DNA of 38,035 nucleotides from a virus. Both the position numbers and the translations under genes were made by a program. Numbering within the stretch: the first letter of the stretch is position 1; the number at the start of each line of letters is the position of its first letter. A model generated the notes under the pieces. The model did no database searches. It was not told where the DNA came from and saw only the letters and a list, made by a program, of their open reading frames with translations. Positions 2,946 to 23,268 of this stretch are shown one piece after another. Where the stretch lies: UHGV virus genome UHGV-0072754. One strand, given 5' to 3'.

Positions 2946-2953
2946 TTTGTGGA

Positions 2954-2985
2954 CAAAAAAAAACCTCACGTGAGGTCTTTTTTTC
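2954..2985. terminator. Bidirectional intrinsic terminator downstream of repressor gene
   Basis: A9 - perfect 14-bp palindrome ACCTCACGTGAGGT (2963-2976) - T-run. Confidence 0.7.
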
Positions 2986-2997
2986 CTGTAAATCTTG

Positions 2998-3693: not shown

Positions 3694-3790
3694 GCGTCCA
3701 TTACAAGTGTTTTTTGCGTGTCGTGCAAAGCAACTTGCGCAATTCGCCTGCATGGAATAACATGCGTAATACGCAAATAAAGGAGGCTTT
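3694..3790. promoter_or_regulatory. Immunity operator/promoter region (OR analogue) with divergent pRM-like and pR-like promoters
   Basis: Three operator-like sites: TTGCGTGTCGTGCAA (3714-3728), palindrome TTGCGCAA (3735-3742), perfect 13-bp palindrome TGCGTAATACGCA (3763-3775); plus strand TTGCGC-N17-TAACAT, minus strand TTGCAC-N17-TGTAAT. Confidence 0.6.
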
Positions 3791-4048
3791 ATGCAATCAC
3801 CGTTAAGAAAATTGCGTAAATCGCACGGTATGACCTTGTTGCATGTTGCAACAGGCGTACAGGTCGACCCGGCAACTTTAAGTCGCATTGAAAGATGTGA
3901 ACAGGTTCCATCAGTTGAACTGGCAGAACGTTTAGCCAAGTTCTTCAAAGGCGAGATCAGCGAATTACATATTTTATACCCGAGCCGCTACCAGGTTGCT
4001 GATGACGCATCGGGTAAAGGCAATCGTAATGCGAAAGCAGCCGTCTGA
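3791..4048 (+). CDS. Cro-like HTH regulator (85 aa)
   Basis: AAGGAGG SD then ATG; HTH-like LRKSHGMTLLHVATGVQVDPATLSRIER; divergent from repressor. Confidence 0.65.
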   Translation: MQSPLRKLRKSHGMTLLHVATGVQVDPATLSRIERCEQVPSVELAERLAKFFKGEISELHILYPSRYQVADDASGKGNRNAKAAV

Positions 4049-4070
4049 AAACTACCAAAGGAAAAACAAC

Positions 4071-4541
4071 ATGGTAGAGCCAAGCCTGAAAGAAGTAGTG
4101 AAAGCGATGTGCAAAGCGTACCCCGGAGGCCGTGAGGCTATGGCAGGTGCTCTTGGCATGTCAGTCACGCAGTTCAATAACAATCTGTACGAGAAGAACG
4201 GCTGCCGGTTCTTCGAGGTGAACGAGCTGGAAGCGATGGAGGACATTTCAAACACGTCTTTCCTGGCTGATTACTTCGCGCAACGTCGCGGCGCTCTCCT
4301 GGTGGAAGTTCCGCAACTTGAAGACCTCGATCGCGTTGACCTATTCACCCGTGCAATGAGAACTGCAGCAGCACGCGGTCAGGTTGATCAGATCATTCAG
4401 AAGGCGCTGGAAGATGGAGTGATTGAAGCGCATGAAGCGGAAGAAATTAACGAGTATCACCGCCGTCATCTGGCAGCGCGTGAAGAAGAAATCCGCGCGA
4501 TTGTCGCGCTGTTTAGCCGTAAGCAAAGCCAAAAAAAGTGA
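4071..4541 (+). CDS. cII-position regulatory protein (YdaT-like by position; family not verified)
   Basis: ATG 4071 with AAGGA SD; immediately downstream of cro-like gene; GC-rich hairpin GACGCCCG...CGGGCGTC follows the stop. Confidence 0.45.
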   Translation: MVEPSLKEVVKAMCKAYPGGREAMAGALGMSVTQFNNNLYEKNGCRFFEVNELEAMEDISNTSFLADYFAQRRGALLVEVPQLEDLDRVDLFTRAMRTAAARGQVDQIIQKALEDGVIEAHEAEEINEYHRRHLAAREEEIRAIVALFSRKQSQKK

Positions 4542-4602
4542 CGCCCGCGAGTGTGCAGCTCCGGGCGTCTTGGCGTGTCGTATTCAGTGGAGAAACTAAC
4601 GC

Positions 4603-4941
4603 ATGAACAGTTTAAACCGATTGAGACCAGCGAAGCAATTCAGATGCCTTCCGCTGGTGGGAAAAGATTCCCCGTTCGGCTATGTGGAGAGATTAAACGA
4701 CCAGGCTGATACGAACAACTACCAGCCTGAGAACGCGATGGTAGAGGCTTTTGCTCAGATGAACGAGAAGGGGCGCGAGGAATGGCTGAAGTTAACCGGC
4801 GATTCAAAGACCACTACGGCGTCCCGGTCCGTGTCATCAGATGGGAGCCACAGACCCGACGCGTTATATACCTTCGCGAAGGGTACGATCATGAGTGCTT
4901 CAGCCCTCTTGAGCAATTCCAGCGTAAATTTACAGAGTTAA
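4603..4941 (+). CDS. Hypothetical protein (112 aa); C-terminal half is overlapped by a better-looking ORF in the -1 frame (4782..4994)
   Basis: Strong SD GGAGAAAC before ATG 4603; Ser/Thr-rich low-complexity C-terminus while the overlapping 4782..4994 frame gives a more protein-like sequence (possible frameshift). Confidence 0.35.
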   Translation: MNSLNRLRPAKQFRCLPLVGKDSPFGYVERLNDQADTNNYQPENAMVEAFAQMNEKGREEWLKLTGDSKTTTASRSVSSDGSHRPDALYTFAKGTIMSASALLSNSSVNLQS

Positions 4942-4950
4942 AGGACGACC

Positions 4951-5877
4951 ATGAGCCTGTTGATGCCATCCCGGCCGATAGTGATAAACCCTGACCTTGC
5001 ATACAGCATTGGCCTGAACGAGGCCATTGCGTTGCAGCAGGTTAACTACTGGCTTAAAGAAACCACCTCCGGACTGGAGCGTGACGGCGTGCGCTGGATT
5101 TACAACACCAACGAGCAGTGGCTGGAGCAGTTCCCGTTCTGGTCTGAGTCTACGCTGAAGCGCACATTCACCCGCCTGAAGCAGCTCGGCGTGCTCAAAG
5201 TTGAGCAGCTGAACAAGTCTCAGCGCGACATGACGAACTACTACACGATCAACTACGAAAGCGAGCTTTTAGATGAGCTCAAAGTGACCAAATCGAAGAG
5301 TTCAAAATGCACTCTTCCATCAGGTCAAAATGAACCGATGGAAGAGGTCAAAGTGGAACGCTCCATCGGTTCAAAACGAACCGCTCTCATCAGGTCAAAT
5401 TGCACTGATGTTCTTACAGAGAATACAACAGAGAATACTACAGATATTAAAAACCCTATTTGTCCGGTTGCGCCGCAACCAGACGGTGATGTGTTGATCA
5501 CCGATCAGGCTAAACAGGTTTTAACCCATCTGAACCAGGTGACCAGTTCGCGTTATCAGGTTTCAACAACCTCGCTGCAAAATATTCGTGCCCGAATCGG
5601 GGAGGGCTACACCGTTGAAGAATTGTCGCTGGTGGTGGACTACTGCAACGCCAAGTGGAGCGAAGACCTGACGATGGCGACCTACCTTCGACCACAGACG
5701 CTTTTCCAGCCGTCCAAGTTCCCTGGCTACCTGAAGTCAGCGAACAGTTGGGCCAAAGCTGGGCGACCTCCTCGCGTAAACGGAGAGTGGGCCCGAGAGG
5801 ATGGGGTTTTCCGCTCCAGTTTCCAGAACACTGACTACAGCAAAGTCCCGGCAGGCTTCAGAGGAGCGAACTCATGA
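4951..5877 (+). CDS. Replication initiator, lambda O-like (308 aa)
   Basis: AAGGA SD; position after the cII-like gene; iteron array lies inside the linker-coding region as in lambda O; conserved-looking C-terminal domain. Confidence 0.7.
   Translation: MSLLMPSRPIVINPDLAYSIGLNEAIALQQVNYWLKETTSGLERDGVRWIYNTNEQWLEQFPFWSESTLKRTFTRLKQLGVLKVEQLNKSQRDMTNYYTINYESELLDELKVTKSKSSKCTLPSGQNEPMEEVKVERSIGSKRTALIRSNCTDVLTENTTENTTDIKNPICPVAPQPDGDVLITDQAKQVLTHLNQVTSSRYQVSTTSLQNIRARIGEGYTVEELSLVVDYCNAKWSEDLTMATYLRPQTLFQPSKFPGYLKSANSWAKAGRPPRVNGEWAREDGVFRSSFQNTDYSKVPAGFRGANS
5297..5462. repeat. Candidate replication origin: 4-5 iterons plus adjacent AT-rich segment inside the O-like gene
   Basis: Repeats of ~GGT(T)CAAAAYGMAC with inverted symmetry (CATCAGGTCAAAATGAACCGATG 5319-5341, GGTTCAAAACGAACC 5368-5382, CATCAGGTCAAATTGCACTGATG 5388-5410) followed by cagagaatacaacagagaatactacagatattaaaaa. 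Confidence 0.55.
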
Positions 5878-6368
5878 GCCTTCTGAAAGATATTCAAATT
5901 TTCATCGCTGAAAACCCTGGGTTAACTAACAAACAGATCGCAGCATCAATGCCTCAATACCGACTTCATGCTGTTCAGCGCGGTGTATGCCATCTGGTCA
6001 AATTGAATCGCGCAACACGGCAGCATAACGGTAAGTGCTACCAGTATTTTGCCAAAGCGCCGGGAGGTGACGTTAGCGAGGGGCGTTCTGCACTGAAAAT
6101 TAACCGGGCAGATACACCAGCTGTATCGGAACAGGAAGAAGCGCCGAATCCAGCTGTAACCAGGATGATGGATAAGGCTAAAGGCCTGTTTGAAAAAGGG
6201 CTCTACCAGCGTGCGGCCACAGTTTTGATGGATGCCTTCAATCGCTCAAAAGACGAAGAGCAGCGAATGAAGATACTCATTGAGCGCCAGCGTTGTCTGC
6301 GCATGTCCCCGAAAGTTAAAGCGCCAACTGATGCATGGTGTCTGGCAGGTCAGGGGAGGAATATCTAA
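5874..6368 (+). CDS. Hypothetical replication-module protein in the lambda P position (164 aa)
   Basis: ATGA overlap with the O-like gene; no helicase-loader motif recognised. Confidence 0.4.
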   Translation: MSLLKDIQIFIAENPGLTNKQIAASMPQYRLHAVQRGVCHLVKLNRATRQHNGKCYQYFAKAPGGDVSEGRSALKINRADTPAVSEQEEAPNPAVTRMMDKAKGLFEKGLYQRAATVLMDAFNRSKDEEQRMKILIERQRCLRMSPKVKAPTDAWCLAGQGRNI

Positions 6369-7027
6369 TGAAATACTCTCTGATTTACGCAGACCCAGCC
6401 TGGGAATACGGCAACACCGTCAGCAACGGCGCGGCTACTAATCACTACGGCACAATGAAGCTGGTCGACATGAAGCGTCTTCCGGTCTGGGACCTTGCTG
6501 CTGACGATGCTGTTTTGGCTATGTGGTTCACCGGCACGCATACCCGCGAAGCGATTGAACTGGCTGAAGCATGGGGCTTTAAGGTCCGCACTATGAAGGG
6601 ATTCACCTGGGTGAAGCTCAACCAGCTCGCAGAGCAGCACATCAACAAAGCACTTCAGGCTGGTGGAGTAGAGGACTTTTACGACTTCCTCGACCTGCTT
6701 AACGAGCAGACCCGCATGAACGGCGGAAACTACACCCGAGCCAATACAGAAGACCTGCTTATAGCCACCAGGGGGAATGGACTTGAACGCCAGTGCGCGA
6801 GCATCAAGCAGGTTATCTACAGCCCACTGGGCAAGCACAGCCAGAAGCCAGCAGAGGCGCGCTTCCGCCTGGAGAAGCTTTACGGTGACGTTCCGCGCAT
6901 CGAACTCTTCAGCCGCTGCGGTGCACCAGGATGGCACCACTGGGGTAATCAGAGTGAGTCCGCTGCAGTTGAGTTGATTCCTGGCGTTGCTGTTCCGGTG
7001 GCAGATAACCGGGAGCATGCAGCATGA
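6368..7027 (+). CDS. MT-A70 family DNA N6-adenine methyltransferase (219 aa)
   Basis: IYADPAWEY (DPPW-type catalytic motif) near the N-terminus, HSQKP later; GGAGG SD; TAATG overlap with upstream gene. Confidence 0.75.
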   Translation: MKYSLIYADPAWEYGNTVSNGAATNHYGTMKLVDMKRLPVWDLAADDAVLAMWFTGTHTREAIELAEAWGFKVRTMKGFTWVKLNQLAEQHINKALQAGGVEDFYDFLDLLNEQTRMNGGNYTRANTEDLLIATRGNGLERQCASIKQVIYSPLGKHSQKPAEARFRLEKLYGDVPRIELFSRCGAPGWHHWGNQSESAAVELIPGVAVPVADNREHAA

Positions 7028-7251
7028 AGAAGCTATCAACCGAGCAGGAGAACGCGGTTCGTGACGTTGCCCGTCAATGCTCCGATGCCATTAAGAAAGC
7101 CTTGAAGAAAAAGCCGAAGCCAAGCTGGAACGTCGTTGTACCTCCGATCCTGAAGGAGTACCACGAGAAGGTAAAACCGATGGGCGTAAGTCTGGTGATG
7201 TTCAACAGCGTAATCGGACGCCTGAACGGGCGCTATGGAGTGGAGTCATGA
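7024..7251 (+). CDS. Hypothetical small protein (75 aa)
   Basis: ATGA-coupled between the methylase and RusA genes. Confidence 0.5.
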   Translation: MKKLSTEQENAVRDVARQCSDAIKKALKKKPKPSWNVVVPPILKEYHEKVKPMGVSLVMFNSVIGRLNGRYGVES

Positions 7252-7658
7252 TGAAACTGGTTCTCCCGTTCCCACCGAGCGTAAACACCTACTGGCGAGC
7301 CCCCAATAAGGGGCCGTTGGCAGGACGCCATCTCATCAGTGCTGCTGGCCGCAAATATCAGAGCGCTGCTTGCGCTGCGATTATTGAACAATTACGCCGC
7401 CTGCCTAAACCAACCACAGCGCCAGCGGCGGTTGAGATCATTCTCTATCCACCAGATGCCCGCCGCCGCGATATCGACAATTACAACAAGGCGCTTTTTG
7501 ATGCACTGACACATGCAGGCATCTGGGAGGATGACAGTCAGGTTAAACGAATGCTGGTGGAGTGGGCACCGCAGGTACCTGGCGGGAAGGTTGAAATAAC
7601 GATCGCCAGCTATGTCGAAAATGGTAGGCAAAATAGCAATGCATTGGTACGCGCATGA
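7248..7658 (+). CDS. rusA: RusA-family Holliday junction resolvase
   Basis: PPSVNTYW ... DIDNYNKALFDALTHAGIWEDDSQV, characteristic RusA motifs; nin-region position. Confidence 0.85.
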   Translation: MMKLVLPFPPSVNTYWRAPNKGPLAGRHLISAAGRKYQSAACAAIIEQLRRLPKPTTAPAAVEIILYPPDARRRDIDNYNKALFDALTHAGIWEDDSQVKRMLVEWAPQVPGGKVEITIASYVENGRQNSNALVRA

Positions 7659-7728
7659 GTGTTAGATTAAAAAGTGTCAGCGAAGCGGGAGTGCAGACCC
7701 GCTCGCACTACAACAAGTGGAGAAACAT

Positions 7729-8523
7729 ATGAATCAGTTATTCGTAATTGATGGCGTTTCCGTACGCCGTGATTTTGATGGTCGTTACTGCCTGAATGAT
7801 TTGCATCGTGCGGCGGGAGGTGAAAAACGTCACCAGCCTTCCAACTGGTCCTGTCTTACCCAAACGCAAGAACTCATCGCTGAAATTTCGAGCGCTCCTG
7901 GAATTACAGGAGCGGCCCCGTTGGTCACCCTTACTGGTGGTGTTAACCAGGGGACATTCGTCTGCAAGGAGTTGGTTTATTCCTATGCAATGTGGATCAG
8001 CCCGAAATTTAACCTCAAAGTCATCAGAACGTTCGATGCCGTACAGAACCCTGCATCCAATGCGCCGACATCCGACAAAATTCAGGCTGGCGTGATCCTG
8101 CTTGAATCGGCGGCGAAAATGCTGAACCTCTCAAACTCTTCAAGGCTCGGTGCTTATCAAAAACTCCAGCAGGTAGCTGGTCTTCCAGATCTGATGCCGC
8201 ATTACGCGATCGATGCACCTGCCGGTGCGCAGGATGGGTCCAGCCGTCCCACACAATCACTCAGCGCTCTGCTTAAAGCAAAAAACATCCGCATCACCGC
8301 CAATCAGGTTTATCACATGATGTCCCGCTTTGGGATTGTGGAACAAAAAGAGCGAAACAGTCGGTCTGGAGTGAATGGTGTTAAAAAGTTCTGGTCACTT
8401 ACTGCCAAAGGCTGCATGTATGGCAAGAACATCACCAGTCCTGCGAACCCGCGAGAAACTCAGCCTCATTTCTTTGAGTCGAAGTTTGCGGAGCTTCTTA
8501 AAATAATCGACATCGTAGCCTGA
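7729..8523 (+). CDS. KilA-N domain protein with antirepressor-like C-terminal region (264 aa)
   Basis: N-terminal KilA-N signature (VRRDFDGRYCLNDLHRAAGG ... GTFVCKELVYSYAMWISPKF); GGAG SD before ATG 7729 (track start 7717 is GTG); hairpin GCGGG...CCCGC upstream. Confidence 0.75.
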   Translation: MNQLFVIDGVSVRRDFDGRYCLNDLHRAAGGEKRHQPSNWSCLTQTQELIAEISSAPGITGAAPLVTLTGGVNQGTFVCKELVYSYAMWISPKFNLKVIRTFDAVQNPASNAPTSDKIQAGVILLESAAKMLNLSNSSRLGAYQKLQQVAGLPDLMPHYAIDAPAGAQDGSSRPTQSLSALLKAKNIRITANQVYHMMSRFGIVEQKERNSRSGVNGVKKFWSLTAKGCMYGKNITSPANPRETQPHFFESKFAELLKIIDIVA

Positions 8524-8530
8524 GGTAACA

Positions 8531-9520
8531 GTGAGAGCATTACTGACACCTGAAGTTGCACCAATGTCCGGGGTGGTACTGTTTCGCCCCGGAAACGAAC
8601 TGCTGTGGTTGTTTCGCCGTGGCAGGGTGGTGATTGAAACGCCTTCCGAAGCAATCAAGCACCTGCCATCTGGACTGATTCCTGAAGCCCACCAGCCACT
8701 GACAGATGATGTCAGTGTGCAGGAGCTTTTCCTGAATGAGAGAGTTATTCAGCGTGCTGGTGGACTGAGTGGCCTTGATGCCTGGCTGGAACGTAAATTC
8801 GAATGTCAGTGGCCGCACAACGAATGGCACTCAAAGGACTTTACACTTCTACGCCACGCCCCCGGCAGCATTCGCCTGTGCTGGGGATGTGATAACCAAC
8901 TGCGTGAACAAACTACAGAAAGACTGGCAGGAATTGCCATGCAGAACCTGGTAAAATGGCTGCTCGAAAGGGTGAATATCATGCTGGGTTTCAGCGCTGA
9001 CCACACCCTGACGCTGCCGGAGTTTTGCTGGTGGATGATACGTAACGATCTGGCTGACCTGATTCCTGAATCAGTGGCTAGCCAGGCGCTCCGGATTAAG
9101 CCTGAATCGCACAGTTCAGTGATGCGTGAAAGCGACATTGTTCCGTCATTACCAGCAACTGAAATCCTCCAGGAGAAAGTTAAGAAGATAGTCTCGGTGA
9201 AGGTCGATCCTGAATCACCTGAATCTTTCATGCTGAGGCCAAAGCGCCGTCGCTGGGAGAACGACAAGTACACCCGCTGGGTGAAGTCGCAGCAGTGCAG
9301 TTGCTGCAATAACCCGGCAGACGACCCCCATCACCTGATTGGCCACGGGCAAGGTGGAATGGGTACCAAAGCGCATGACCTGTTTGTGATACCGCTGTGC
9401 AGAGCGCATCACGATGAGTTACACGCTGATCCTGTGGCATTTGAAGCGAAGCACGGCGACCAGTTAACGCTGTTGTTTCGGTTTTTAGATCGTGCGCTGG
9501 CAATCGGCGCACTGGCGTAA
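8531..9520 (+). CDS. DUF968-like nin-region protein with C-terminal Cys/His (HNH-like) motif (329 aa)
   Basis: GTG start with GAGG SD; C-terminus CSCCNNPADDPHHLIGHG...CRAHHDELH; recalled resemblance to DUF968 prophage proteins. Confidence 0.55.
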   Translation: MRALLTPEVAPMSGVVLFRPGNELLWLFRRGRVVIETPSEAIKHLPSGLIPEAHQPLTDDVSVQELFLNERVIQRAGGLSGLDAWLERKFECQWPHNEWHSKDFTLLRHAPGSIRLCWGCDNQLREQTTERLAGIAMQNLVKWLLERVNIMLGFSADHTLTLPEFCWWMIRNDLADLIPESVASQALRIKPESHSSVMRESDIVPSLPATEILQEKVKKIVSVKVDPESPESFMLRPKRRRWENDKYTRWVKSQQCSCCNNPADDPHHLIGHGQGGMGTKAHDLFVIPLCRAHHDELHADPVAFEAKHGDQLTLLFRFLDRALAIGALA

Positions 9521-9533
9521 GTGGAGACGCAGC

Positions 9534-10112
9534 ATGATCAATCCTTCAGAAGTTGGCAAATCGGGCGAGATGGTTCGCCTTCGCACTCTCGAAAGTATCT
9601 GGGTACAGGGTAAGCTCCGTATGTGGGGCCGCTGGTCTTATATCGGTGGTGGCTCTGGCGGAAACATGTTCAACCAGCTGCTGGCATCGGGGAAAATCAC
9701 CAAGACCGCTATCAACGATGCGCTGCGCCGCATGAAGAAATCCGGTATCACCAAACCCGAGCTGGAAGCGTACCTGCAAGAAATTCTCGACAGTAAAAAC
9801 AAAACTGGCCTGACGTTCTGCTCGGACGAAGAGGGGCTTAAGATTGACGGCGTTATTGCGGCAGTGCTGATGAACGAAGAATACCGTGGGCTGTATAGTG
9901 TGATTGTTGATCGTCATCGTCTGCGTAAAAGCAAACTCCAGATGGCTAAAGAGCTTAATTCAAAACACCCCGACTGGACCCTTATTACATGCCGTCGTCG
10001 TATTGATACATGGGTAAGTCTTGCAGAATCGATCATTTACGCACCACTTTGTGACGCGTTTGGCACAAATAGCGACAGATTTAAGTTGCATAGTGAGCAA
10101 GAAAGTGCTTAA
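9534..10112 (+). CDS. Late-gene antitermination protein Q
   Basis: GGAG SD before ATG 9534; motif LRMWGRWSYIGGG recalled from the phage antiterminator Q family; upstream of a terminator-rich leader and the lysis cassette. Confidence 0.7.
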   Translation: MINPSEVGKSGEMVRLRTLESIWVQGKLRMWGRWSYIGGGSGGNMFNQLLASGKITKTAINDALRRMKKSGITKPELEAYLQEILDSKNKTGLTFCSDEEGLKIDGVIAAVLMNEEYRGLYSVIVDRHRLRKSKLQMAKELNSKHPDWTLITCRRRIDTWVSLAESIIYAPLCDAFGTNSDRFKLHSEQESA

Positions 10113-10114
10113 AT
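10086..10114 (+). promoter_or_regulatory. Candidate late promoter (pR'-like) overlapping the Q stop
   Basis: TTGCAT-N17-TTAAAT; alternative weaker candidate TTGACC-N17-GTAACT at 10261-10289. Confidence 0.3.
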
Positions 10115-10164
10115 TGTGGTAGGCTCGGGACAGTAAAGCGTACTGAGCAACAAATCAAAACATA

Positions 10165-10195
10165 AACCCGCCACTGCTGCGGGTTTTTTATTTTA
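10165..10195 (+). terminator. Intrinsic terminator in late leader
   Basis: CCCGC-cactgct-GCGGG followed by TTTTTTATTTT. Confidence 0.65.
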
Positions 10196-10435
10196 AGGGC
10201 TGCCTCCGGGTGGCCTTTTTTGTTTCCCCTCGTTCTGAGAGGACTCATGGCGATGATGTATTGACCGCTAGAATGGATTAGTCGTAACTTATTATTGTGG
10301 TGAATCCTTTCTAAGCGAAAGGGCGTTCCAGTCAACTGCTATCTGCAGGTATGCGCGCGGCTTTGCTGACTTGGGTAGAGTCACCGGGAGGCACCCGGCA
10401 CCATGACAATAACAATACAGTTTCAAATTCCTTGA

Positions 10436-10467
10436 GAGCCTGCCGTAAAAAGCAGGCCTTTTTTTAT
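10436..10467 (+). terminator. Intrinsic terminator in late leader
   Basis: GCCTGC-cgtaaaaa-GCAGGC followed by CTTTTTTTAT. Confidence 0.65.
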
Positions 10468-10618
10468 GAATTTGCAAACTGCTGCTACGCTTGAAATGTG
10501 TGTTGAAGGTAATTGCCTGATGGTTCTCCTGAACCGTTGTGAACCAGCCCGATACTGTCTCACTCAGGTCAGTTAGCAAGACTCACGACTACCTACCTTA
10601 CTTACTAATAGTCACTCA

Positions 10619-10650
10619 TTAGCCCGCCTTCAAAAGCGGGCTTTTTTTAT
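10619..10650 (+). terminator. Intrinsic terminator 45 bp upstream of the holin gene
   Basis: AGCCCGC-cttcaaa-GCGGGCT followed by TTTTTTTAT. Confidence 0.65.
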
Positions 10651-10695
10651 TCCCCTCATCACTGAGAGGATTCACGGCAATAAGAGGGGGACTAG

Positions 10696-11091
10696 ATGTC
10701 CGATCCTGTTTCTGGCACGACAGTAGCGGCTGGTGGTCTGATGGGGGCCAGCATGTTCGGCCTGGCAACAGGCATAGACTACGGTGTGGTGTTTGGCGCA
10801 TTCGCTGGTGCCGTGTTCTACGTCGCTACGGCAGTTAATATCAGCCGCCTTAAGCTGGTGGGCTACTTCATCACCTCATTCATCTTCGGCGTTATCGGCG
10901 CTCCACTGCTTGGCTCTTACTTCTCCAAATGGACGGGGTATAGCGACAGGCCACTCGATGCGCTGGGCGCGGTAATCGTAGCCGCTATTGCTATTAAGCT
11001 GCTGACGTTCGTAAACAGTCAGGATTTGGGTAGCCTGTTTGGAATTCTCTCGCGTTTACGTGGTGGAGGGGCCAGCAATGGTAACAAGTGA
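10696..11091 (+). CDS. Holin-like membrane protein (131 aa)
   Basis: Several hydrophobic helices, Gly/Ala-rich; first gene of lysis cassette. Confidence 0.55.
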   Translation: MSDPVSGTTVAAGGLMGASMFGLATGIDYGVVFGAFAGAVFYVATAVNISRLKLVGYFITSFIFGVIGAPLLGSYFSKWTGYSDRPLDALGAVIVAAIAIKLLTFVNSQDLGSLFGILSRLRGGGASNGNK

Positions 11092-11359
11092 TCCGAGTGC
11101 GATGGCAAACGCAATTATCTCTGCTGTTATCGTTATTGCACTGATGTTCTACCAGCGCGGCGGGGCGAGACATCGCCCTCTGATATCGCTGATGGCTTAT
11201 TTCACGGTGCTGGTATACGCCAGCGTCCCGTTCCGTTACCTGTTCGGCTTGTACCATGAATCGCACTGGTTCGTGGTGCTGGTGAACGTCCTGATATGCG
11301 CCGCCGTTCTCTGGGCTCGGGGAAACGTAGCACGCCTGGTTGATGCACTGAGGCACTAA
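11078..11359 (+). CDS. Second small membrane protein of the lysis cassette (holin/antiholin candidate, 93 aa)
   Basis: ATG 11078 overlaps upstream stop; 2-3 predicted TM segments; immediately precedes endolysin. Confidence 0.5.
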   Translation: MVTSDPSAMANAIISAVIVIALMFYQRGGARHRPLISLMAYFTVLVYASVPFRYLFGLYHESHWFVVLVNVLICAAVLWARGNVARLVDALRH

Positions 11360-11985
11360 TGAACCAATCACAATTTCAAAAGGCGGCTGGGCTAAGCGCC
11401 GAGTTAGCTGCACGCTGGTTTCAGCCAGTGAGTGATGCGATGAAAGAGTTCGGCATTACGAAACCGGTAGACCAGGCAATGTTCATAGCTCAGGCAGGGC
11501 ATGAATCAGCAGGCTTCACTCTGCTGGTGGAGAGCTTCAACTACCGCATTGCAGCACTCGTGAATTTCATCCGTGCCGGACGTCTCACAGCAGACCAGGC
11601 AAATGCGCTTGGCCGCCGTCCTGAGGAACGAACATTACCGATTGAGCGCCAGCGAGCCATTGCTAACCTGGTATACAGCAAGCGAATGGGGAACAACGCT
11701 CCCGGTGACGGCTGGTTATACCGTGGGCGTGGACTTATCCAGATTACCGGACTCAATAACTACCGTGATTGCGGGAACGGCCTGAAGGTTGATTTGGTTA
11801 AGCAGCCTGAGCTGTTGGCCGAAGATGTTTATGCATCCAGAAGCGCGGCGTGGTTCTTCGCCACTAAGGGATGCCTGAAGTATTCCGGCGACCTGATGCA
11901 GGTGACGAAGATTATCAACGGCGGAACGAACGGACTGGAAGATCGTCGCGCTCGTTTCGGTCAGGCCAAAACGGTATTGGTGTGA
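11359..11985 (+). CDS. Endolysin, glycoside hydrolase family 19 (chitinase-like lysozyme)
   Basis: Motifs FIAQAGHESAGF, YRGRGLIQITGLNNY, YSGDLMQVTKIINGG typical of GH19 phage endolysins. Confidence 0.8.
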   Translation: MNQSQFQKAAGLSAELAARWFQPVSDAMKEFGITKPVDQAMFIAQAGHESAGFTLLVESFNYRIAALVNFIRAGRLTADQANALGRRPEERTLPIERQRAIANLVYSKRMGNNAPGDGWLYRGRGLIQITGLNNYRDCGNGLKVDLVKQPELLAEDVYASRSAAWFFATKGCLKYSGDLMQVTKIINGGTNGLEDRRARFGQAKTVLV

Positions 11986-11992
11986 GGTTGAT

Positions 11993-12268
11993 ATGGGATT
12001 AGAAACAATCGTCGGTATTGCTGCCCTGATAATGGCGGCTATCGCAGGTGCCTTTGGCATTGGTCACTCACGCGGCACCAGCAAAGCGGAAGCTAAAGCC
12101 GACCAACTGCGCACCGAAGAAAAGGCCGCAGCCACTGAAGCAGTAGCCGAACGCCGGGTAGAAGCAACGAAAGAGGCCAGCAATGTACAGCAGACTGTTA
12201 ACCGCATGCCTGATGACGATGTTGATCGCGAGCTGCGCACCACGTGGAAGCGTCCCGGTGGTGGTTGA
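11993..12268 (+). CDS. i-spanin (Rz-like)
   Basis: N-terminal TM helix then charged coiled-coil region; follows endolysin. Confidence 0.7.
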   Translation: MGLETIVGIAALIMAAIAGAFGIGHSRGTSKAEAKADQLRTEEKAAATEAVAERRVEATKEASNVQQTVNRMPDDDVDRELRTTWKRPGGG

Positions 12269-12419
12269 TACCGCCTGTGACTGGGTAAAGCCAATCTACC
12301 TGACCGATCACGACATCGACGTTATGGACCGCCAGACGAAGAAAGACATCCTGGCGCATAACAAAGCGTGGCAGGCGAACTGCCAGAAACCAATAGCAGT
12401 CACCATTCCAAAAGGATAA
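12183..12419 (+). CDS. o-spanin lipoprotein (Rz1-like), overlapping i-spanin in another frame
   Basis: Lipobox LIASC after signal peptide; gene starts inside the Rz-like gene in a different frame (classic Rz/Rz1 architecture). Confidence 0.7.
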   Translation: MYSRLLTACLMTMLIASCAPRGSVPVVVDTACDWVKPIYLTDHDIDVMDRQTKKDILAHNKAWQANCQKPIAVTIPKG

Positions 12420-12474
12420 GCATGACAGCAGGCATTCAATTATCGCCTATGATGATGCTCTTTTATTTAGTTGC

Positions 12475-12483
12475 TGATATAAT
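12475..12483 (+). promoter_or_regulatory. Extended -10 promoter (TGaTATAAT) for the AT-rich moron
   Basis: TGATATAAT 32 nt upstream of the moron start; strong AGGAGGG SD follows. Confidence 0.35.
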
Positions 12484-12514
12484 CCCCCCTAAATGATTTC
12501 AGGAGGGATCTGCG

Positions 12515-12823
12515 TTGTCCGCGATAAACCACATAAAAAACCCGTTAACGATTATCGGTATTTTTGCGGGGATAGTAGAGGTCTCTGCAAACCTCGTATT
12601 ACCTTTTCTTAATGATTCCCAGCAAAGTACATATCTTTGGTTTTTAATGTTTTTCCCGGCAGGGCTTGTAATAGTGTTTTTTTTGACGCTGAATTTTAAT
12701 CATGTTGCACTTTATGCTCCAAGCGATTATAGCAACGATAGAGGATTCATGCAGGCCAATGGTAAAATGATCGGTAATGATGTTCAGGATACTGATGCAA
12801 CACAAGGCTTTGAATTAACATGA
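12515..12823 (+). CDS. Small membrane protein, AT-rich moron gene 1 (102 aa, TTG start)
   Basis: TTG start 7 nt after AGGAGGG; two hydrophobic helices; markedly lower GC than flanking phage genes. Confidence 0.5.
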   Translation: MSAINHIKNPLTIIGIFAGIVEVSANLVLPFLNDSQQSTYLWFLMFFPAGLVIVFFLTLNFNHVALYAPSDYSNDRGFMQANGKMIGNDVQDTDATQGFELT

Positions 12824-13086
12824 ATAAATTCATCTCAAGCACTTTTAATAATACTATCGTCGAACTGGATGGCAACCATTACGAAAAGTGCGTTTTTGAA
12901 AATTGCGAAATTGTATATAAGGGGTTACAGCCTTTTAATTTAATTAATTGTAATTTTATTGCATGCAAATGGAAATTTGAAGGTGCAGCGTCAAACACAA
13001 TTAATTTTTTAAAGGTTATGTATAAAGATATGGGTGAGTTTGGAAAGAAAATGGTAGAAGCCACTTTCGAAAACATAAAAAAATAG
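12820..13086 (+). CDS. Small Cys-containing soluble protein, AT-rich moron gene 2 (88 aa)
   Basis: ATGA overlap with gene 1; repeated motifs resembling pentapeptide repeats (FENCEI, LINCNF, FIACKW); low GC. Confidence 0.5.
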   Translation: MNKFISSTFNNTIVELDGNHYEKCVFENCEIVYKGLQPFNLINCNFIACKWKFEGAASNTINFLKVMYKDMGEFGKKMVEATFENIKK

Positions 13087-13118
13087 TTTCATCCATTTAC
13101 TTTCAATTTATGAGATAT

Positions 13119-13145
13119 TGCCCTGCAATCGCGGGGCTTTTTTAT
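13119..13145 (+). terminator. Intrinsic terminator closing the moron
   Basis: CCCTGC-aatc-GCGGGG then CTTTTTTAT. Confidence 0.55.
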
Positions 13146-13256
13146 GCGCATCGCACGCGCACATCAAAGAAAGTCTTTCAGCTGTGAGCCTGGGCAAACC
13201 GTTAACTTTCGGCGGCCTTGCCGTGCGACAGGCTCACGTCTAAAAGGAAATAAATC

Positions 13257-13838
13257 ATGGGTCAGAAAATTATTACGTTGTCCGGCGCGGCGACGGATGT
13301 TCTGTATGCGCTGTTTTTCCGTGGCGCGCTTCAGTCTGGTGACCTGCCAGCTAAATCTGGTGCCGCTGAGCTTCGAGAGTTGGGATTCGCTGAAACACGC
13401 CATACCGCGACGGAGTATCAAAAGGAAAATTATTTCACCTTCCTGACTGCTGAAGGGCAGGAGTTTGCCATTAAGCATCTGGTAAATACGCGCTTTGGTG
13501 TGCCAGTGGGTAAGCAGTATTGCAGCGCAATCAAAATTGATGTTGAGCTGGACACGTCAGACGCACAAAAGGTTCTTGACGAATTGGACGACAAAATCCG
13601 AAACAACGATGCATTTAAGGCCATGAAAGACGGATGGCAGCTCGAAAAAAACGGAACGATGATTATTAATAACGGCCAGGTATTCATAAAAGATGCCTTC
13701 ATCGATCCCGAAATTAAGACCAGTGTGAAGCTATCCCCTGAAATGGAAAAAGCTATTTCTGATGCTGTGTCAGCCGAACTTAAAAAGAATCTTAAGCCCG
13801 GTGGCATAATCTGGGATTGCTTACGGCGTGGAATCTGA
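13257..13838 (+). CDS. Hypothetical protein (193 aa), first gene of glycosyltransferase module
   Basis: AAGGAAA SD; no family recognised. Confidence 0.55.
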   Translation: MGQKIITLSGAATDVLYALFFRGALQSGDLPAKSGAAELRELGFAETRHTATEYQKENYFTFLTAEGQEFAIKHLVNTRFGVPVGKQYCSAIKIDVELDTSDAQKVLDELDDKIRNNDAFKAMKDGWQLEKNGTMIINNGQVFIKDAFIDPEIKTSVKLSPEMEKAISDAVSAELKKNLKPGGIIWDCLRRGI

Positions 13839-13849
13839 AGGGAGATTTT

Positions 13850-15307
13850 ATGCAGGTCACTATTAATGGTGTCCCATACGCTCCCGCCAGCGTCGTTTCA
13901 TCACGGATCGGCATTGCAATTTCGACACATCAGCGCACAGACGTATTAAAACGAGCACTCGAACAGCACATGAAGCATCTTCCCGCCAGCGCGCTGGTGG
14001 TGGTGGTCGATGATGGTTCAAAACCTGCAGCTGTAGTTCCCCACGGCGTTCAGCTGCATCGACATGAAACATCACTCGGCATTGTTGCTTCGAAGAACAC
14101 TAGCCTGTCAGCCCTGATGGACGCCGGGTGTGAGCATCTCTTCCTGTGGGACGATGACGCCTGGCCCATCGCTGATAACTGGCACTTGCCTTACATTGAA
14201 TCACCCGAGCCACACCTGGCTTACCAGTTTCTCGATCTGGCTGGCCGCAATAAGTTGAATGACCTTTCGGTGCTTTACCGTGACGATCAGCATGTGGCGT
14301 ATACCGGGCAGCGCGGCGTGATGCTGTATTACCACCGCAGCGCCATCGAGAAGGTGGGCGGATTCGATCCGGTTTATGGTCGCGGCATGTACGAACATAG
14401 TGACCTCGCCCTGCGCATCCATAATGCTGGCCTGACGACATGGGCTTACGGTGATGTGGTCGGTTCAGAAAAGCTGATTCACTCTCTCGATGAGCATGAA
14501 GCAGTGGAGCGTTCGGTACCGAAACCAGACCGGCAGGCGCTGGTGGAACGTAACGTTAAAATCCACAACGAACGGCGCGATACCGGGTTTACTGGTTACG
14601 TTGAATACCGCCAGCAGCGCGACGTGGTTATCACTACGTTACTGACCAGCCAGCCTGACCCTCAGCGCGGCACAAAAATGACGGCCTCGCCTGACATGCT
14701 GAGTAAATGGGCGGCATCGCTGCGTAATTGTGGACGTATCGCGCTGGTGGATGAACTTCAGACGGCCCCGGCAGACGTTGAGCTGTACCGCGTCCCTGAC
14801 GTGAAGATGAATGTCTACTTTCGTCGCTGGTTGCACATCTGGCAGCACCTGCGAGAACACCCTGAATACCGGTTCGTCTGGTGTACCGATGGGACCGATG
14901 TCGAAATGCTTCGCGCACCGTGGGAAGAAATGCAGCCCGGTAATGTTTATGTCGGTTCAGAACCGAAGACATACGCCGACGCATGGGCAAAACAGAATCA
15001 TCCTGAGCGTATCTATCAGGAGTTCATTGAAGCGCACCGCAATAATGTGATGCTTAACGCTGGTCTGCTGGGTGGCACCCGCGCTGATGTAATGGCGTTC
15101 GCTCACGGCATCATCCGTCTTTACTACCGGATCGAGAGTTATCGTTTCTGGAAGAAAGAACAGGCTGGCGCCGCGGTGGGGGATATGATCGCTTTTGGCA
15201 TTGTCTCGCAGTCATTCGCTGACAGGCTGGTCACCGGCCCTCTGGTACATACCGTTTTCAAAACTGATGGTATCGGTAAGGAGGCCGCATGGTGGAAACA
15301 CAAGTGA
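13850..15307 (+). CDS. Glycosyltransferase, GT-A fold (family 2-like) N-domain plus unknown C-terminal domain (485 aa)
   Basis: GAAGGGAGA SD before ATG 13850; motifs VVVVDDGS, FLWDDDAWP (DXD-type), GGFDP...GMYEHSDL characteristic of GT2 enzymes. Confidence 0.65.
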   Translation: MQVTINGVPYAPASVVSSRIGIAISTHQRTDVLKRALEQHMKHLPASALVVVVDDGSKPAAVVPHGVQLHRHETSLGIVASKNTSLSALMDAGCEHLFLWDDDAWPIADNWHLPYIESPEPHLAYQFLDLAGRNKLNDLSVLYRDDQHVAYTGQRGVMLYYHRSAIEKVGGFDPVYGRGMYEHSDLALRIHNAGLTTWAYGDVVGSEKLIHSLDEHEAVERSVPKPDRQALVERNVKIHNERRDTGFTGYVEYRQQRDVVITTLLTSQPDPQRGTKMTASPDMLSKWAASLRNCGRIALVDELQTAPADVELYRVPDVKMNVYFRRWLHIWQHLREHPEYRFVWCTDGTDVEMLRAPWEEMQPGNVYVGSEPKTYADAWAKQNHPERIYQEFIEAHRNNVMLNAGLLGGTRADVMAFAHGIIRLYYRIESYRFWKKEQAGAAVGDMIAFGIVSQSFADRLVTGPLVHTVFKTDGIGKEAAWWKHK

Positions 15308-15879
15308 AGTTTATTGTGGTTGGCCATCACTCTCGCATAGGTCATGCGCAACGACTTGCCGCGCAGCTGGATGCTCATCTGCTTATTGATGACGGTAACC
15401 GCGGCGCGAACTGGAATCATCGGCGTGCGCTTGAGTGGGCAGCAGAGCAAACATGCCGGGTAGTGATGTTGGAAGACGACGCGATTCCTGTGCAGGGCTT
15501 CACCGATAAGGTAACTGAATGGCTGGTGCGCTTCCCTGACGACATGCTGAGCTTTTATCTCGGTACCGGCCGACCGCCGCAATATCAGAAAGAGATTGCC
15601 GGAATGCTGGTGGATGCGGATCGCGTCTGTGGTGACCACATCGTATTAAGCAAACTGATACACGGAGTATGTTACAGCCCTCCGCAGGGCAGGCTGGCGC
15701 GCATGCTTAACGCATGGAATAAAACGCTGGCAGCTGATTACGCCGTCGGTGAGGCATTCGGTGGCCGGGTGATTTATCCGTGTTACTCGCTGGTGGACCA
15801 CGCTGACCTCCAGACGGTTGAGCGTCACCCTGACAACGAGCCGAGGACAGAACGCCGCCGCGCATGGAGGCTGGCATGA
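15289..15879 (+). CDS. Hypothetical protein (196 aa), possibly nucleotide-sugar transferase-like
   Basis: AAGGAGG SD; overlaps the end of the GT gene; acidic motif VVMLEDDAIP; ATGA-coupled to HNH gene. Confidence 0.5.
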   Translation: MVETQVKFIVVGHHSRIGHAQRLAAQLDAHLLIDDGNRGANWNHRRALEWAAEQTCRVVMLEDDAIPVQGFTDKVTEWLVRFPDDMLSFYLGTGRPPQYQKEIAGMLVDADRVCGDHIVLSKLIHGVCYSPPQGRLARMLNAWNKTLAADYAVGEAFGGRVIYPCYSLVDHADLQTVERHPDNEPRTERRRAWRLA

Positions 15880-16217
15880 ACAAAGAGCCCCGCGTATATG
15901 GCAGCCGATGGGATAAGGCCCGTCTGCGTTTCCTGCAGCAGCACCCACTATGTGTGATGTGTGAGCAACAGGGGCGCATTACCCCAGCAACGGTGGTTGA
16001 CCATATCGAGCCCCACAAACTTAAAGATGCGCTTAAGTCAGGTAACCCTCTGGCCATATCGAAAGCACAGCACCTGTTCTGGAGTAAAGAGAACTGGCAG
16101 CCACTGTGCAAAGCGCATCATGACTCAACGAAACAGAGAATGGAGAAGAGCGGCGCGGTAATAGGCTGTGATGCCAACGGCTACCCGCTCGATCCTGCGT
16201 CTCACTGGAGCACGTAA
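15876..16217 (+). CDS. HNH endonuclease (packaging-associated)
   Basis: CVMCEQQGRITPATVVDHIEPH...CKAHH HNH motif; immediately upstream of terminase genes as in HK97-like cos phages. Confidence 0.8.
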   Translation: MNKEPRVYGSRWDKARLRFLQQHPLCVMCEQQGRITPATVVDHIEPHKLKDALKSGNPLAISKAQHLFWSKENWQPLCKAHHDSTKQRMEKSGAVIGCDANGYPLDPASHWST

Positions 16218-16420
16218 TGAAAGACCTCAGCATTGAATACCGCGATGGAAAATTCGTTCGCCTGGTGATTGATGGCGTGGAGATGAAGAACGTGACATCC
16301 ATTCAGTTCTCGCACGCTGTAGGGCAGGAGGTGCCGACAGTGACCGTCTCAGGGCATGTTGTCTCCGGGCGTGTGAAAGGCACTCAGAAACTCGAACAGG
16401 TAGACAAACATTCGGCATAG
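16217..16420 (+). CDS. Hypothetical small protein (67 aa)
   Basis: TAATG overlap with the HNH gene. Confidence 0.4.
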   Translation: MKDLSIEYRDGKFVRLVIDGVEMKNVTSIQFSHAVGQEVPTVTVSGHVVSGRVKGTQKLEQVDKHSA

Positions 16421-16602
16421 CGCGGCGGCGGCAAGTCGATTACCAATTATGTGAAATCATTTCAAATGCAACGATATCAAATGAGAATGAATCGCATCAG
16501 GGCAGGGGGGGATCAAATCTTCAAAACCTTTGCCCCAAATGACCGCCGCCAAAGTTTGATTTTAACGCTAACCCGATTTTTTTAGTTTTAAGGTGTTGAC
16601 AT
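16421..16602. other. Candidate cos / terminase recognition region
   Basis: Noncoding gap between HNH and TerS with GC-rich inverted elements (GCGCGGCGGCGGC at 16420-16432 and GACCGCCGCC at 16540-16549) and a G-run (CAGGGCAGGGGGGG). Confidence 0.25.
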
Positions 16603-17088
16603 ATGGCAGATAAACGAACCCGTTCCGACAGTTCGGCGGCAGCGGTTCAGGCCATGAAAAATGCAGCAGTGGACACCATCGATCCTCCGTCCCATGCAGG
16701 TTTGGAAAAAAAAGCCGAACCATTCTGGCATGACAATATCAGATCGAAAGCTCTGGACAGCTGGACCCCGGCCGACCTTCTGGCAGCTGTAGAGCTGGCA
16801 AATAACCAGCTCTATATAACGGTTTTACGTAAGGATTTACGCAAAGAAGAGCGAGCACGCGGAGAGGGCCGCGACGAAGGGCTTATCAAAGACCTACGCA
16901 AGCAGATTGTTGAGCTGCAGCGAACTATTCTGGCTCAGCGCCGTGACCTCCAGATCCATTCCCACGCAACCAACGGCGAAAGCCGCGACCAGAAGAAACG
17001 CAATCAGAATGATCGTGATGCACGAAATACCAAAAACGAGCATCAGGACCAGGATGACAACCTGATCGCCTTTCCCAAGCATGGATAA
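16603..17088 (+). CDS. Terminase small subunit (P27-family-like)
   Basis: Size, charged C-terminus, and position between HNH and large terminase. Confidence 0.65.
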   Translation: MADKRTRSDSSAAAVQAMKNAAVDTIDPPSHAGLEKKAEPFWHDNIRSKALDSWTPADLLAAVELANNQLYITVLRKDLRKEERARGEGRDEGLIKDLRKQIVELQRTILAQRRDLQIHSHATNGESRDQKKRNQNDRDARNTKNEHQDQDDNLIAFPKHG

Positions 17089-17094
17089 AAGACT

Positions 17095-18609
17095 ATGACG
17101 CGAGGTAAGCGTGTAATAGCGTTCATCGAGCGCTTTTGCATCGTGCCGGAAGGCAAGCTTATTGGCCAGCCCATGAGGCTGGACCCCTTTCAGAAAGAAT
17201 TCATCCTGGCGGTTTACGACAATCCAGCCGGAACGGATATGGCGATCCTCAGCATCGCCCGAAAAAATGGTAAGACTGGCCTAATTGCCGGAATTCTGCT
17301 GGCTCACCTGGTGGGTCCTGAAGCGGTGCAGAACACGCAGATTGTCAGCGGTGCACTCAGCCGGGAACAGGCGGCCATCGTTTTTAACCTCGCGGTGAAG
17401 ATGGTTAACCTGAACCCCAAGCTGCAGGAGATTGTGCACATTACGCCCAGCGGCAAAAAGCTGATCGGCCTGCCGTGTAACGTCGAATACAAGGCTTTAT
17501 CCGCAGAAGGAAAGACGACGCACGGACTTTCCCCCATTCTGGCCATTCTCGATGAAACCGGGCAGGTTAGGGGGCCGCAGGATGATTTTATCGATGCAAT
17601 AACTACCGCGCAGGGGGCGCATGAAAACCCGCTGCTGATTGTTATCAGTACGCAGGCAGCAAACGATGCTGACCTGCTGAGCATCTGGATTGATGATGCG
17701 GTCAAATCGAAAGATCCGCACATCGTGTGCCACGTTTATGAAGCGCCAAAAGACGCTGATATCAGTAAACGCGAGTCCTGGCTGGCTGCGAACCCGGCAC
17801 TGGGAACATTCAGGTCAGAAAAAGACATGGCGCGCCAGGCTGAGAAAGCTGGCCGAATGCCAAGCTTCGAAAACACCTTCCGAAACCTCAACCTCAATCA
17901 GCGCGTGTCTACCGTATCGCCGTTTATCTCCCGCAGCGTGTGGGAGCTTTGCGGAGAGATGCCGTTTAACACGCCGAGGAAGTGGTACGCGGGGCTGGAT
18001 CTGTCAGCCAGGAACGACTTAACGGCGCTGGTTATCGCTGGTGAAGCAGATGATGGTGTTTGGGATGTTTTCCCCTTCTTCTGGACACCGCAAAAAACCC
18101 TTGAAGAGCGAACCAAAACGGACCGCGCCCCCTATGACGTTTGGGTGAGAGAGGGGCTGCTGCGCACCACGCCAGGCGCTTCGGTGGATTACTCATTCGT
18201 CGTTGCGGATATCGCTGAAATTATCGGTGATTTCGACCTTACGTCGATGGCTTTTGACCGCTGGCGCATTGACCAGTTCAGGAAGGATGCCGATGCCATT
18301 GGGCTTAGCCTCCCGCTGGTCGAGTTCGGCCAGGGCTTTAAGGATATGGGGCCAGCTGTAGACACGCTGGAGTCTCTGATGCTTAACGGGCGTGTGAGGC
18401 ATGGCATGCACCCCGTATTAACGATGTGTGCTGTGAATGCGGTGGTGGTGAAAGATGCTGCTGGCAACCGCAAGCTCGATAAATCCAAAGCAACGGGCCG
18501 TATTGATGGCATGGTCGCAATGACAATGTCCGTTGGTGCTGCTAATGGGGAAGTTACCGAACAGGGTGGTGACTTCGACGACTTCATTTTCCGACCGCTG
18601 AGCATGTGA
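17095..18609 (+). CDS. Terminase large subunit
   Basis: Walker A-like ARKNGKTG; ATPase plus nuclease-sized protein (504 aa); followed by portal. Confidence 0.9.
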   Translation: MTRGKRVIAFIERFCIVPEGKLIGQPMRLDPFQKEFILAVYDNPAGTDMAILSIARKNGKTGLIAGILLAHLVGPEAVQNTQIVSGALSREQAAIVFNLAVKMVNLNPKLQEIVHITPSGKKLIGLPCNVEYKALSAEGKTTHGLSPILAILDETGQVRGPQDDFIDAITTAQGAHENPLLIVISTQAANDADLLSIWIDDAVKSKDPHIVCHVYEAPKDADISKRESWLAANPALGTFRSEKDMARQAEKAGRMPSFENTFRNLNLNQRVSTVSPFISRSVWELCGEMPFNTPRKWYAGLDLSARNDLTALVIAGEADDGVWDVFPFFWTPQKTLEERTKTDRAPYDVWVREGLLRTTPGASVDYSFVVADIAEIIGDFDLTSMAFDRWRIDQFRKDADAIGLSLPLVEFGQGFKDMGPAVDTLESLMLNGRVRHGMHPVLTMCAVNAVVVKDAAGNRKLDKSKATGRIDGMVAMTMSVGAANGEVTEQGGDFDDFIFRPLSM

Positions 18610-19883
18610 TGGAAGAACCTAAATACACGATTGACCTGCGAACCAATAACGGCTGGTGGGCAAGGCTGCAGTCCTGGTTTGTCGGCGGGCGTTTAGTCAC
18701 CCCAAATCAGGGCTCACAGACGGGGCCTGTTTCGGCCCACGGACACCTGGGCGATTCATCCATTAACGATGAACGGATACTGCAAATTTCGACTGTGTGG
18801 CGCTGCGTGAGTCTGATTTCAACGCTCACGGCATGCTTACCGCTTGATGTCTTCGAAACTGACCAGAATGACAACCGCAAAAAAGTGGGTTTGAGCAATC
18901 CGCTGGCGCGACTGCTGCGCTACTCACCGAATCAGTACATGACCGCCCAGGAATTCAGGGAGGCCATGACGATGCAGCTCTGTTTCTACGGTAACGCGTA
19001 TGCACTGGTGGACCGCAATAGCGCGGGTGACGTGATCAGCCTTCTCCCGCTTCAGTCTGCCAATATGGATGTGAAACTCGTCGGAAAAAAAGTGGTTTAT
19101 CGCTATCAACGCGACAGCGAATACGCCGACTTTTCGCAGAGAGAGATTTTTCACCTTAAAGGCTTCGGATTCACCGGGCTGGTCGGCCTGTCACCAATTG
19201 CTTTTGCCTGTAAATCGGCAGGTGTGGCAGTTGCGATGGAGGACCAGCAGCGAGATTTCTTTGCCAATGGCGCCAAGTCTCCGCAAATCCTCTCAACCGG
19301 CGAAAAAGTGCTAACTGAACAGCAGCGCTCGCAGGTCGAAGAGAACTTCAAAGAGATCGCCGGCGGTCCGGTTAAAAAACGCCTCTGGATTCTGGAAGCG
19401 GGCTTTTCCACATCGGCAATTGGCGTAACGCCACAGGATGCCGAAATGATGGCGTCCCGAAAATTTCAGGTAAGTGAACTGGCGCGATTCTTTGGCGTAC
19501 CGCCTCACCTTGTTGGCGACGTCGAGAAATCAACGAGCTGGGGATCGGGCATCGAGCAGCAGAATCTCGGCTTCCTGCAGTACACCTTGCAGCCCTATAT
19601 CTCCCGGTGGGAAAACAGCATTCAGCGGTGGCTTATTCCTGCTAAGGATGTTGGCCGCATTCATGCTGAGCACAACCTCGATGGCCTGCTGAGGGGCGAT
19701 TCTGCCTCCCGTGCCGCGTTCATGAAGGCAATGGGAGAGTCCGGCCTCCGTACCATCAACGAAATGCGCCGAACGGACAACATGCCGCCATTACCTGGTG
19801 GCGATGTGGCGATGCGACAGGCGCAGTATGTGCCAATTACCGACTTAGGAACCAACAAAGAGCCCCGTAATGACGGGGCTTAA
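18609..19883 (+). CDS. Portal protein (HK97 family)
   Basis: ATG overlaps TerL stop (TGATG); size and conserved portal core recalled from the HK97 family. Confidence 0.85.
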   Translation: MEEPKYTIDLRTNNGWWARLQSWFVGGRLVTPNQGSQTGPVSAHGHLGDSSINDERILQISTVWRCVSLISTLTACLPLDVFETDQNDNRKKVGLSNPLARLLRYSPNQYMTAQEFREAMTMQLCFYGNAYALVDRNSAGDVISLLPLQSANMDVKLVGKKVVYRYQRDSEYADFSQREIFHLKGFGFTGLVGLSPIAFACKSAGVAVAMEDQQRDFFANGAKSPQILSTGEKVLTEQQRSQVEENFKEIAGGPVKKRLWILEAGFSTSAIGVTPQDAEMMASRKFQVSELARFFGVPPHLVGDVEKSTSWGSGIEQQNLGFLQYTLQPYISRWENSIQRWLIPAKDVGRIHAEHNLDGLLRGDSASRAAFMKAMGESGLRTINEMRRTDNMPPLPGGDVAMRQAQYVPITDLGTNKEPRNDGA

Positions 19884-23243: not shown

Positions 23244-23268
23244 CACCCGCTCAGGCGGGTTTTTTATT
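23244..23268 (+). terminator. Intrinsic terminator/attenuator before major tail gene
   Basis: ACCCGC-tcag-GCGGGT then TTTTTTATTT. Confidence 0.6.

Follow-up and report, generated by a model that had tools for sequence, protein, structure and literature searches.

The late operon of the virus genome examined here (UHGV-0072754; the stretch analyzed, 38,035 nucleotides in full, is referred to as the window) contains a noncoding gap directly in front of the small terminase gene, and the question raised by this locus is what that gap is for. An earlier note, made from the sequence alone, had proposed that it carries a candidate cos site. This proposal is supported by the genome termini of HK97, HK022, and HK75, by the cohesive end, by the TerS site, and by near-identical proteins, and the gap almost certainly carries a cos site, that of a Hendrixvirinae (HK97-like) temperate phage with prophage gene order. 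Judged by its sequence, the cos in the gap is one already known, that of HK97, with 94 to 97% identity across the gap and 100% identity across the mapped elements.

The noncoding gap and its neighboring genes

The gap, which extends from the stop codon of a 67-amino-acid (67-aa) ORF to the ATG of terS at 16603, is exactly 182 bp long, and the ORF boundaries (16420/16603) bore out the length and noncoding character given in the earlier note. No other gap in the late operon exceeds 55 bp, which makes this one by far the largest, and its 3' end contains the terS ribosome-binding site, AAGGTG (16590-16595). The gap is not uniformly GC-rich; its GC content is 0.43, compared with 0.52 for the window, and two parts, 16451-16504 (GC content of 0.37) and 16554-16602 (0.31), are AT-rich. 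The G-run that had been noticed is real, consisting of seven G residues that form the sole G or C run of at least 7 nt in the 38-kb window, and it proved to be a conserved feature of variable length. The hexamer CAAATG is underrepresented in the window (15 copies versus approximately 33 expected), and, as a post hoc observation, 3 of the 15 copies fall within the 79 bp at 16463-16541, 5' of the cut. The sole copy inside the strongly conserved core is at 16536.

The gap had also been described as containing GC-rich inverted elements. A perfect 8-nt inverted repeat does exist, formed by GGCGGCGG (16424-16431) and CCGCCGCC (16543-16550), but it is at chance level, as 317 of 1,000 shuffles of 16380-16650 yielded a perfect repeat of at least that length. 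The left arm is missing in Fostie, LAU1, ENT39118, LMessi, and SaltyDalty, in which the rest of the site is retained, and the right arm is the cohesive end itself. When the gap was folded as single-stranded DNA, a z score of 0.33 was obtained. Inverted repeats were ruled out as a functional signal by the shuffles, the unconserved left arm, and the fold. No two-fold symmetry about the nicks, in the style of lambda cosN, was seen by eye in ATGACCGCCG/CCAAAGTTTG.

The order of genes matches that of the HK97-type cos module, namely, HNH, small ORF, cos, terS, terL, and portal (Table 1), with ORFs in the protease and capsid positions 3' of the portal gene. The cos site had been placed between the HNH endonuclease and small terminase genes; the terS side of this location stands, whereas on the other side the nearest gene is the 67-aa ORF, with the HNH gene beyond it. 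The HNH ORF has an alternative start at 15864, and its product belongs to the gp74 type, an accessory nuclease for cos cleavage. It differs from HK97 gp74 by two substitutions in the first 101 residues, and its C-terminal tail is unlike that of HK97 gp74 because the HK97 record is frameshifted. Comparison of the HK97 tail (locus L002, 1810-1872) with window 16170-16217 revealed that its last 12 to 18 residues differ from those of most relatives too; CDAN is followed by ATRSILRL... in HK97 and by GYPLDPASHWST in the window. In other phages, the HNH stop codon overlaps the start of the 67-aa ORF (ATGA). This ORF is present but unannotated in HK97 and is annotated as a hypothetical protein in HK75, mEpX1, ECP1, and mEp506.

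TerS and TerL are 98.1 and 99.4% identical to HK97 gp1 and gp2, respectively. Every listed DNA-contact residue of HK97 TerS is retained in TerS of the window, which carries K4, R5, R7, S8, D9, K100, R107, R114, E126, S127, and R128.

Several observations were made outside the packaging genes. Two glycosyltransferase genes without a Pfam match (13817-15307, PHROG 1579; 15289-15879, PHROG 854) occupy a moron-like position, with the lysis region on one side and the HNH gene on the other. Near-identical 24-nt copies of ACCCGCTC(A/C)GGCGGGTTTTTTATT at 23245-23268 and 33677-33700, and also at 10169-10192, follow tail-region genes and resemble intrinsic terminator hairpins. An integrase gene was not found in the window; at its right end (37090-37878), a DUF2076 protein, a member of a conserved bacterial family, is encoded. 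The window probably represents a prophage truncated on the left and flanked by host DNA on the right.

TABLE 1 Features of the cos region and adjacent genes, in window coordinates; signed numbers are relative to the predicted cut
Feature	Position	Strand	Remarks
HNH endonuclease gene (HK97 gp74 homologue)	15876-16217	+	Pfam PF01844; PHROG 2323, E = 3.6e-52
Conserved 67-aa ORF, between HNH gene and cos	16217-16420	+	PHROG 10282, full length, E = 5.6e-41
Noncoding gap	16421-16602	.	Contains the predicted cos
Conserved block	16451-16602	+	All 14 aligned relatives; approximately -103 to +49 from the cut
Cos core (-49 to +36)	16505-16589	+	Also carried by terminase-less islands
G-run (-49 to -43)	16505-16511	+	Length of 4 to 11 in 71 distinct sequences, 13 in HK75
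AAATCTTCA (-39 to -31)	16515-16523	+	99 to 100% invariant
Predicted cohesive end CGCCGCCAAA (10-nt 3' overhang)	16544-16553	+	Equals the right ends of HK97, HK022, and HK75
Minimal TerS site CTAACCCGATTTTTT (+15 to +29)	16568-16582	+	Identical to HK97 positions 15 to 29
TerS gene	16603-17088	+	161 aa; PHROG 5601; 158/161 identical to HK97 gp1
TerL gene	17095-18609	+	Pfam TerL_ATPase and TerL_nuclease; 501/504 identical to HK97 gp2
Portal gene	18606-19883	+	Pfam Phage_portal, E = 3.4e-93

Predicted cut site and TerS binding site

Using 15864-17200 as a megablast query, 39 phage records with 88 to 95% identity were identified, nearly all of them Hendrixvirinae, and these included HK97, HK022, HK75, HK106, mEpX1, ECP1, and Fostie. 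The GenBank genomes of HK97, HK022, and HK75 are deposited as linear virion DNA, and in all three the last base of the record corresponds to window 16553 (query base 690) and base 1 to 16554. When the joined ends of HK97 were compared with the window, one substitution was found at the junction (A to T at +7), with 16535-16559 otherwise identical. The same change is common to Fostie, SaltyDalty, and LMessi and lies outside the minimal TerS site. The last 10 nt of HK75 are annotated as "cos site" and are identical to the 10 nt of the window that end at 16553. The 25-nt cos core has a single occurrence in the window, against a chance expectation of 0.

From these matches we infer nicks at 16553/16554 on the top strand and 16543/16544 on the bottom strand. 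The genome ends of HK97 carry 10-nt 3' overhangs (PMC9410871, PMC11331095), and cleavage takes place between -1 and +1 (PMC11331095). The overhang is given as 10 nt in a figure legend of PMC9410871 and as 12 nt in its discussion, where it was apparently swapped with the lambda value; the 10-nt figure is consistent with PMC11331095 and with the HK75 annotation. HK106 transferred a plasmid that bears the HK106 cos (PMC11364771), and HK106 is 95.7% identical to the window in this region. By the same comparisons, the copy of cos in the window would be expected to be cleaved in vivo. For a headful (pac) mechanism, the findings run the other way, as TerL shares 99.4% identity with the HK97 terminase, which is of the cos type, and relatives are deposited with fixed ends at this position.

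The records of two relatives are atypical at the cut. In that of HK633 (JQ086377.1), the last base is equivalent to 16543 and the sequence resumes with ACT plus GTTTGAATTT, so that the 10-nt cohesive end is absent, which would fit removal of the 3' overhang in library end repair (blunt-ending). In LMessi (PP925823.1), cos is rearranged at the equivalent of 16540-16565, where ...AAATG is followed by the left end in reverse complement, then by TTTGGCGGCG, which is the cohesive end in reverse complement, and then by ATTTTAACGC. The rearrangement looks like an assembly artifact at physical genome ends and, if so, would indirectly fit genome ends at the cos position.

The minimal TerS site of HK97 was mapped to +15 to +29 by electrophoretic mobility shift assay (EMSA) and cryo-electron microscopy (cryoEM), with Arg7 contacting T16 and Arg128 contacting the G of C:G pair 21, and the A-tract at 24 to 29 is essential (PMC11331095). 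As these landmarks (T16, C:G 21, and A:T 24 to 29) match numbering from base 1 of the HK97 record, +1 was assigned to window 16554. Accordingly numbered, T16 is found at 16569, C:G 21 at 16574, and the A-tract (24 to 29) at 16577-16582, and the site as a whole is present in one copy in the window with 0 mismatches relative to HK97. HK97 TerS brings the packaging motor to a stall at cos, where gp74 induces cleavage (PMC9410871).

If the mechanism of HK97 is carried over to the element in the window, packaging would start late in infection from a genome present as a concatemer. A TerS nonamer would bind the 15-bp site, with Arg128 reading C:G at 16574, Arg7 reading T at 16569, and the T/A-tract being read via DNA shape. 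TerL, with help from the gp74-type HNH protein encoded upstream, would then nick each strand once, cutting the top one after 16553 and, 10 bp away, the bottom one after the complement of 16544, the outcome being 10-nt 3' cohesive ends with CGCCGCCAAA on the top strand. Packaging would proceed to the right, taking in terS, terL, and then the head and tail genes, and would halt at the next cos, where bound TerS would stall the motor and trigger the cut.

A different reading is that this is a dead cos, left over in a defective prophage and no longer subject to cutting or packaging, in keeping with the integrase gene that was not found in the window and the bacterial DUF2076 gene at its right end. 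However, the HNH, TerS, TerL, portal, protease, and capsid ORFs are all intact, and the TerS contact residues, like the cos core and the TerS site, are identical to those of functional HK97, where decay should have brought changes. We consider a dead remnant improbable and a cos site of a functional type the preferred reading.

Conservation across relatives and a possible second element

To examine conservation, 14 Hendrixvirinae relatives were aligned using MAFFT, and a conserved block reaching from 16451 to the start of terS was found in all of them. Fostie, LAU1, ENT39118, LMessi, and SaltyDalty are completely different 5' of 16451, where the small ORF continues in a longer form. A 19-mer from the cos core was also scanned through IMG/VR and GTDB genomes, yielding 103 usable loci. 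A TerS homologue starts at approximately +50 in 91 of these loci, and the HNH gene lies approximately 680 bp upstream in most. In a scan of genome contigs with the 19-mer, 28 matches were found, mostly in nonenterobacterial taxa, with flanks only 10 to 45% identical downstream of the cut; matching flanks were found only in Pantoea and two Enterobacter cases.

Conservation per position was determined from 71 distinct sequences spanning -60 to +49. Positions +12 to +29 were conserved at 96 to 100%, with +15 to +28 at 100%, and these comparative data lend independent support to the TerS site mapped by experiment. Positions -49 to -31, upstream of the cut, were conserved at 87 to 100%, a range that excludes the bases fixed by the 19-mer search. 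Among the same sequences, the length of the T-run varied from 5 to 8. In the Klebsiella phage ST13-OXA48phi12.2 (phi12.2) and the Serratia phage OS31, the gene order is the same but the TerS gene is shorter (465 versus 486 bp). Both retain the upstream half of cos and AATGACC, with AAATCTTCA largely retained (AAA..TTCA), while the sequence downstream of the cut is divergent. This pattern suggests that the downstream half may covary with TerS and that the upstream half may be read by more conserved cutting machinery.

The pattern of conservation also bears on whether the gap is an ordinary regulatory intergenic region of the head operon (promoter, terminator, or small RNA) with no packaging role. 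A minus-strand "promoter" is annotated by consensus match at approximately the equivalent of 16439-16465 in the records of HK544, HK106, HK446, mEpX2, and mEp234, and the gap does end in the ribosome-binding site of terS. However, a consensus scan of both strands of 15800-17200 returned 0 promoter-like and 0 terminator-like sites, a search of Rfam gave no match at an E value of 1 or lower, the fold z score was 0.33, and the most conserved blocks fall at the mapped cleavage and TerS sites rather than at the annotated promoter. A purely regulatory role is very unlikely. It is harder still to credit that the gap encodes a small protein, either a 44-aa ORF with a GTG start that is present at 16451-16585 or the 30- to 35-aa ORFs called in relatives (automatic pipelines annotate short hypothetical proteins in Fostie, SaltyDalty, and LMessi), because the length of the G-run changes by numbers not divisible by three (4 to 11, and 13 in HK75) and its indels break the frame between close relatives; the 44-aa ORF has no Pfam match, and the curated records of HK97, HK022, HK75, HK633, and mEpX1 call no gene in the gap. 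Small ORFs called by pipelines across cos are best regarded as spurious.

With the gap read as a cos site, the G-run and AAATCTTCA (together 16505-16523) could form a second recognition element for TerL and/or the HNH protein, for example, a cosQ-like signal for the end of packaging; we regard this as a tentative proposal, somewhat short of probable. The block is conserved as strongly as the TerS site and is retained both in terminase-less islands that keep just -49 to +36 and in the two phages of Klebsiella and Serratia, where the downstream half and TerS have diverged together. It occupies what we take to be the place of cosQ in lambda. No description of a role for -49 to -31 in HK97 cos cleavage was found in the literature examined, and in flagging this block the comparative data go beyond the published accounts examined.

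The predicted bottom-strand nick, 5'-GCG/GTC-3' (slash, nick), has the CG/GT core and nick position of the site of the phage Gamma HNH nickase, given as YCG/GT (PMC4027164). The shared core would fit an HNH protein cutting the bottom strand. For gp74 itself, the activity has been described as nonspecific, with nicking specificity not determined (PMC3592412).

Copies of the cos core of 85 to 89 bp, reaching from the G-run to +36 (window 16501-16589), were observed in islands of approximately 10 kb. Matches of 89 bp were found in islands of E. coli ZF34 (NZ_CP047461.1; locus L018, 9001-9089), ZF31, and CUWW06, and the cos core is also present in Pantoea sp. 1.19 and in a 67-kb contig from IMG/VR. 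The islands lie beside tRNA-Thr and encode an integrase, an HTH regulator, an Icd-like protein, a P4-family primase, and SSB, without terminase or capsid genes. In the island copies of cos, +3 to +11 differ, and the TerS site is intact. This suggests that small integrase/primase islands are phage satellites borrowing an HK97-type cos, and no description of cos-core satellite islands was found in the literature searched.

The cos of the window is, as a finding, of low significance, being a further copy of one of the best-characterized phage packaging sites. Its use lies in annotation, where the element can be recorded as a cos-type HK97-like prophage with predicted virion ends at 16543/16553.

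Comparison with known packaging systems

Among HNH-dependent cos systems of Gram-positive bacteria, the phi12/SaPIbov5 type shares with this locus an HNH gene that adjoins cos and the terminase genes, and satellites are reported to carry a copy of the helper cos (Quiles-Puchalt 2014; PMC5052747). It differs in host range, and no sequence similarity to it was found in a comparison in outline.

The likeness to lambda cos (cosQ-cosN-cosB) is one of layout and use. The TerS site lies downstream of a staggered nick and just 5' of the terminase genes, and cos serves in the initiation as well as the termination of packaging from concatemers. Lambda, with its 12-nt 5' overhangs and IHF, is not known to use an HNH protein. 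TerL of the window matches PF03354 and PF20441, which presumably are not the family of lambda gpA. Neither a Nu1/gpA-like terminase nor IHF sites in a cosB were found here; the IHF consensus WATCAANNNNTTR had no match in the gap, and its only match in the window is at 36756. The overhang predicted for this site is 10 nt and 3', in contrast to the 12-nt 5' overhangs of lambda, where IHF is used (PMC13595911), and HK97 TerS is unrelated to lambda TerS (PMC6739421).

Compared with HK97, the window has the single substitution at +7, a G-run of 7 rather than 9, and a few changes in the poorly conserved stretch at 16421-16480. Relative to cos sites of the HK97 type, the whole gap is 94 to 97% identical and TerS and TerL are 98 to 99% identical, and the cohesive end CGCCGCCAAA and the TerS site at +15 to +29 are identical to those of HK97 as well as HK022, HK75, HK106, and other Hendrixvirinae.
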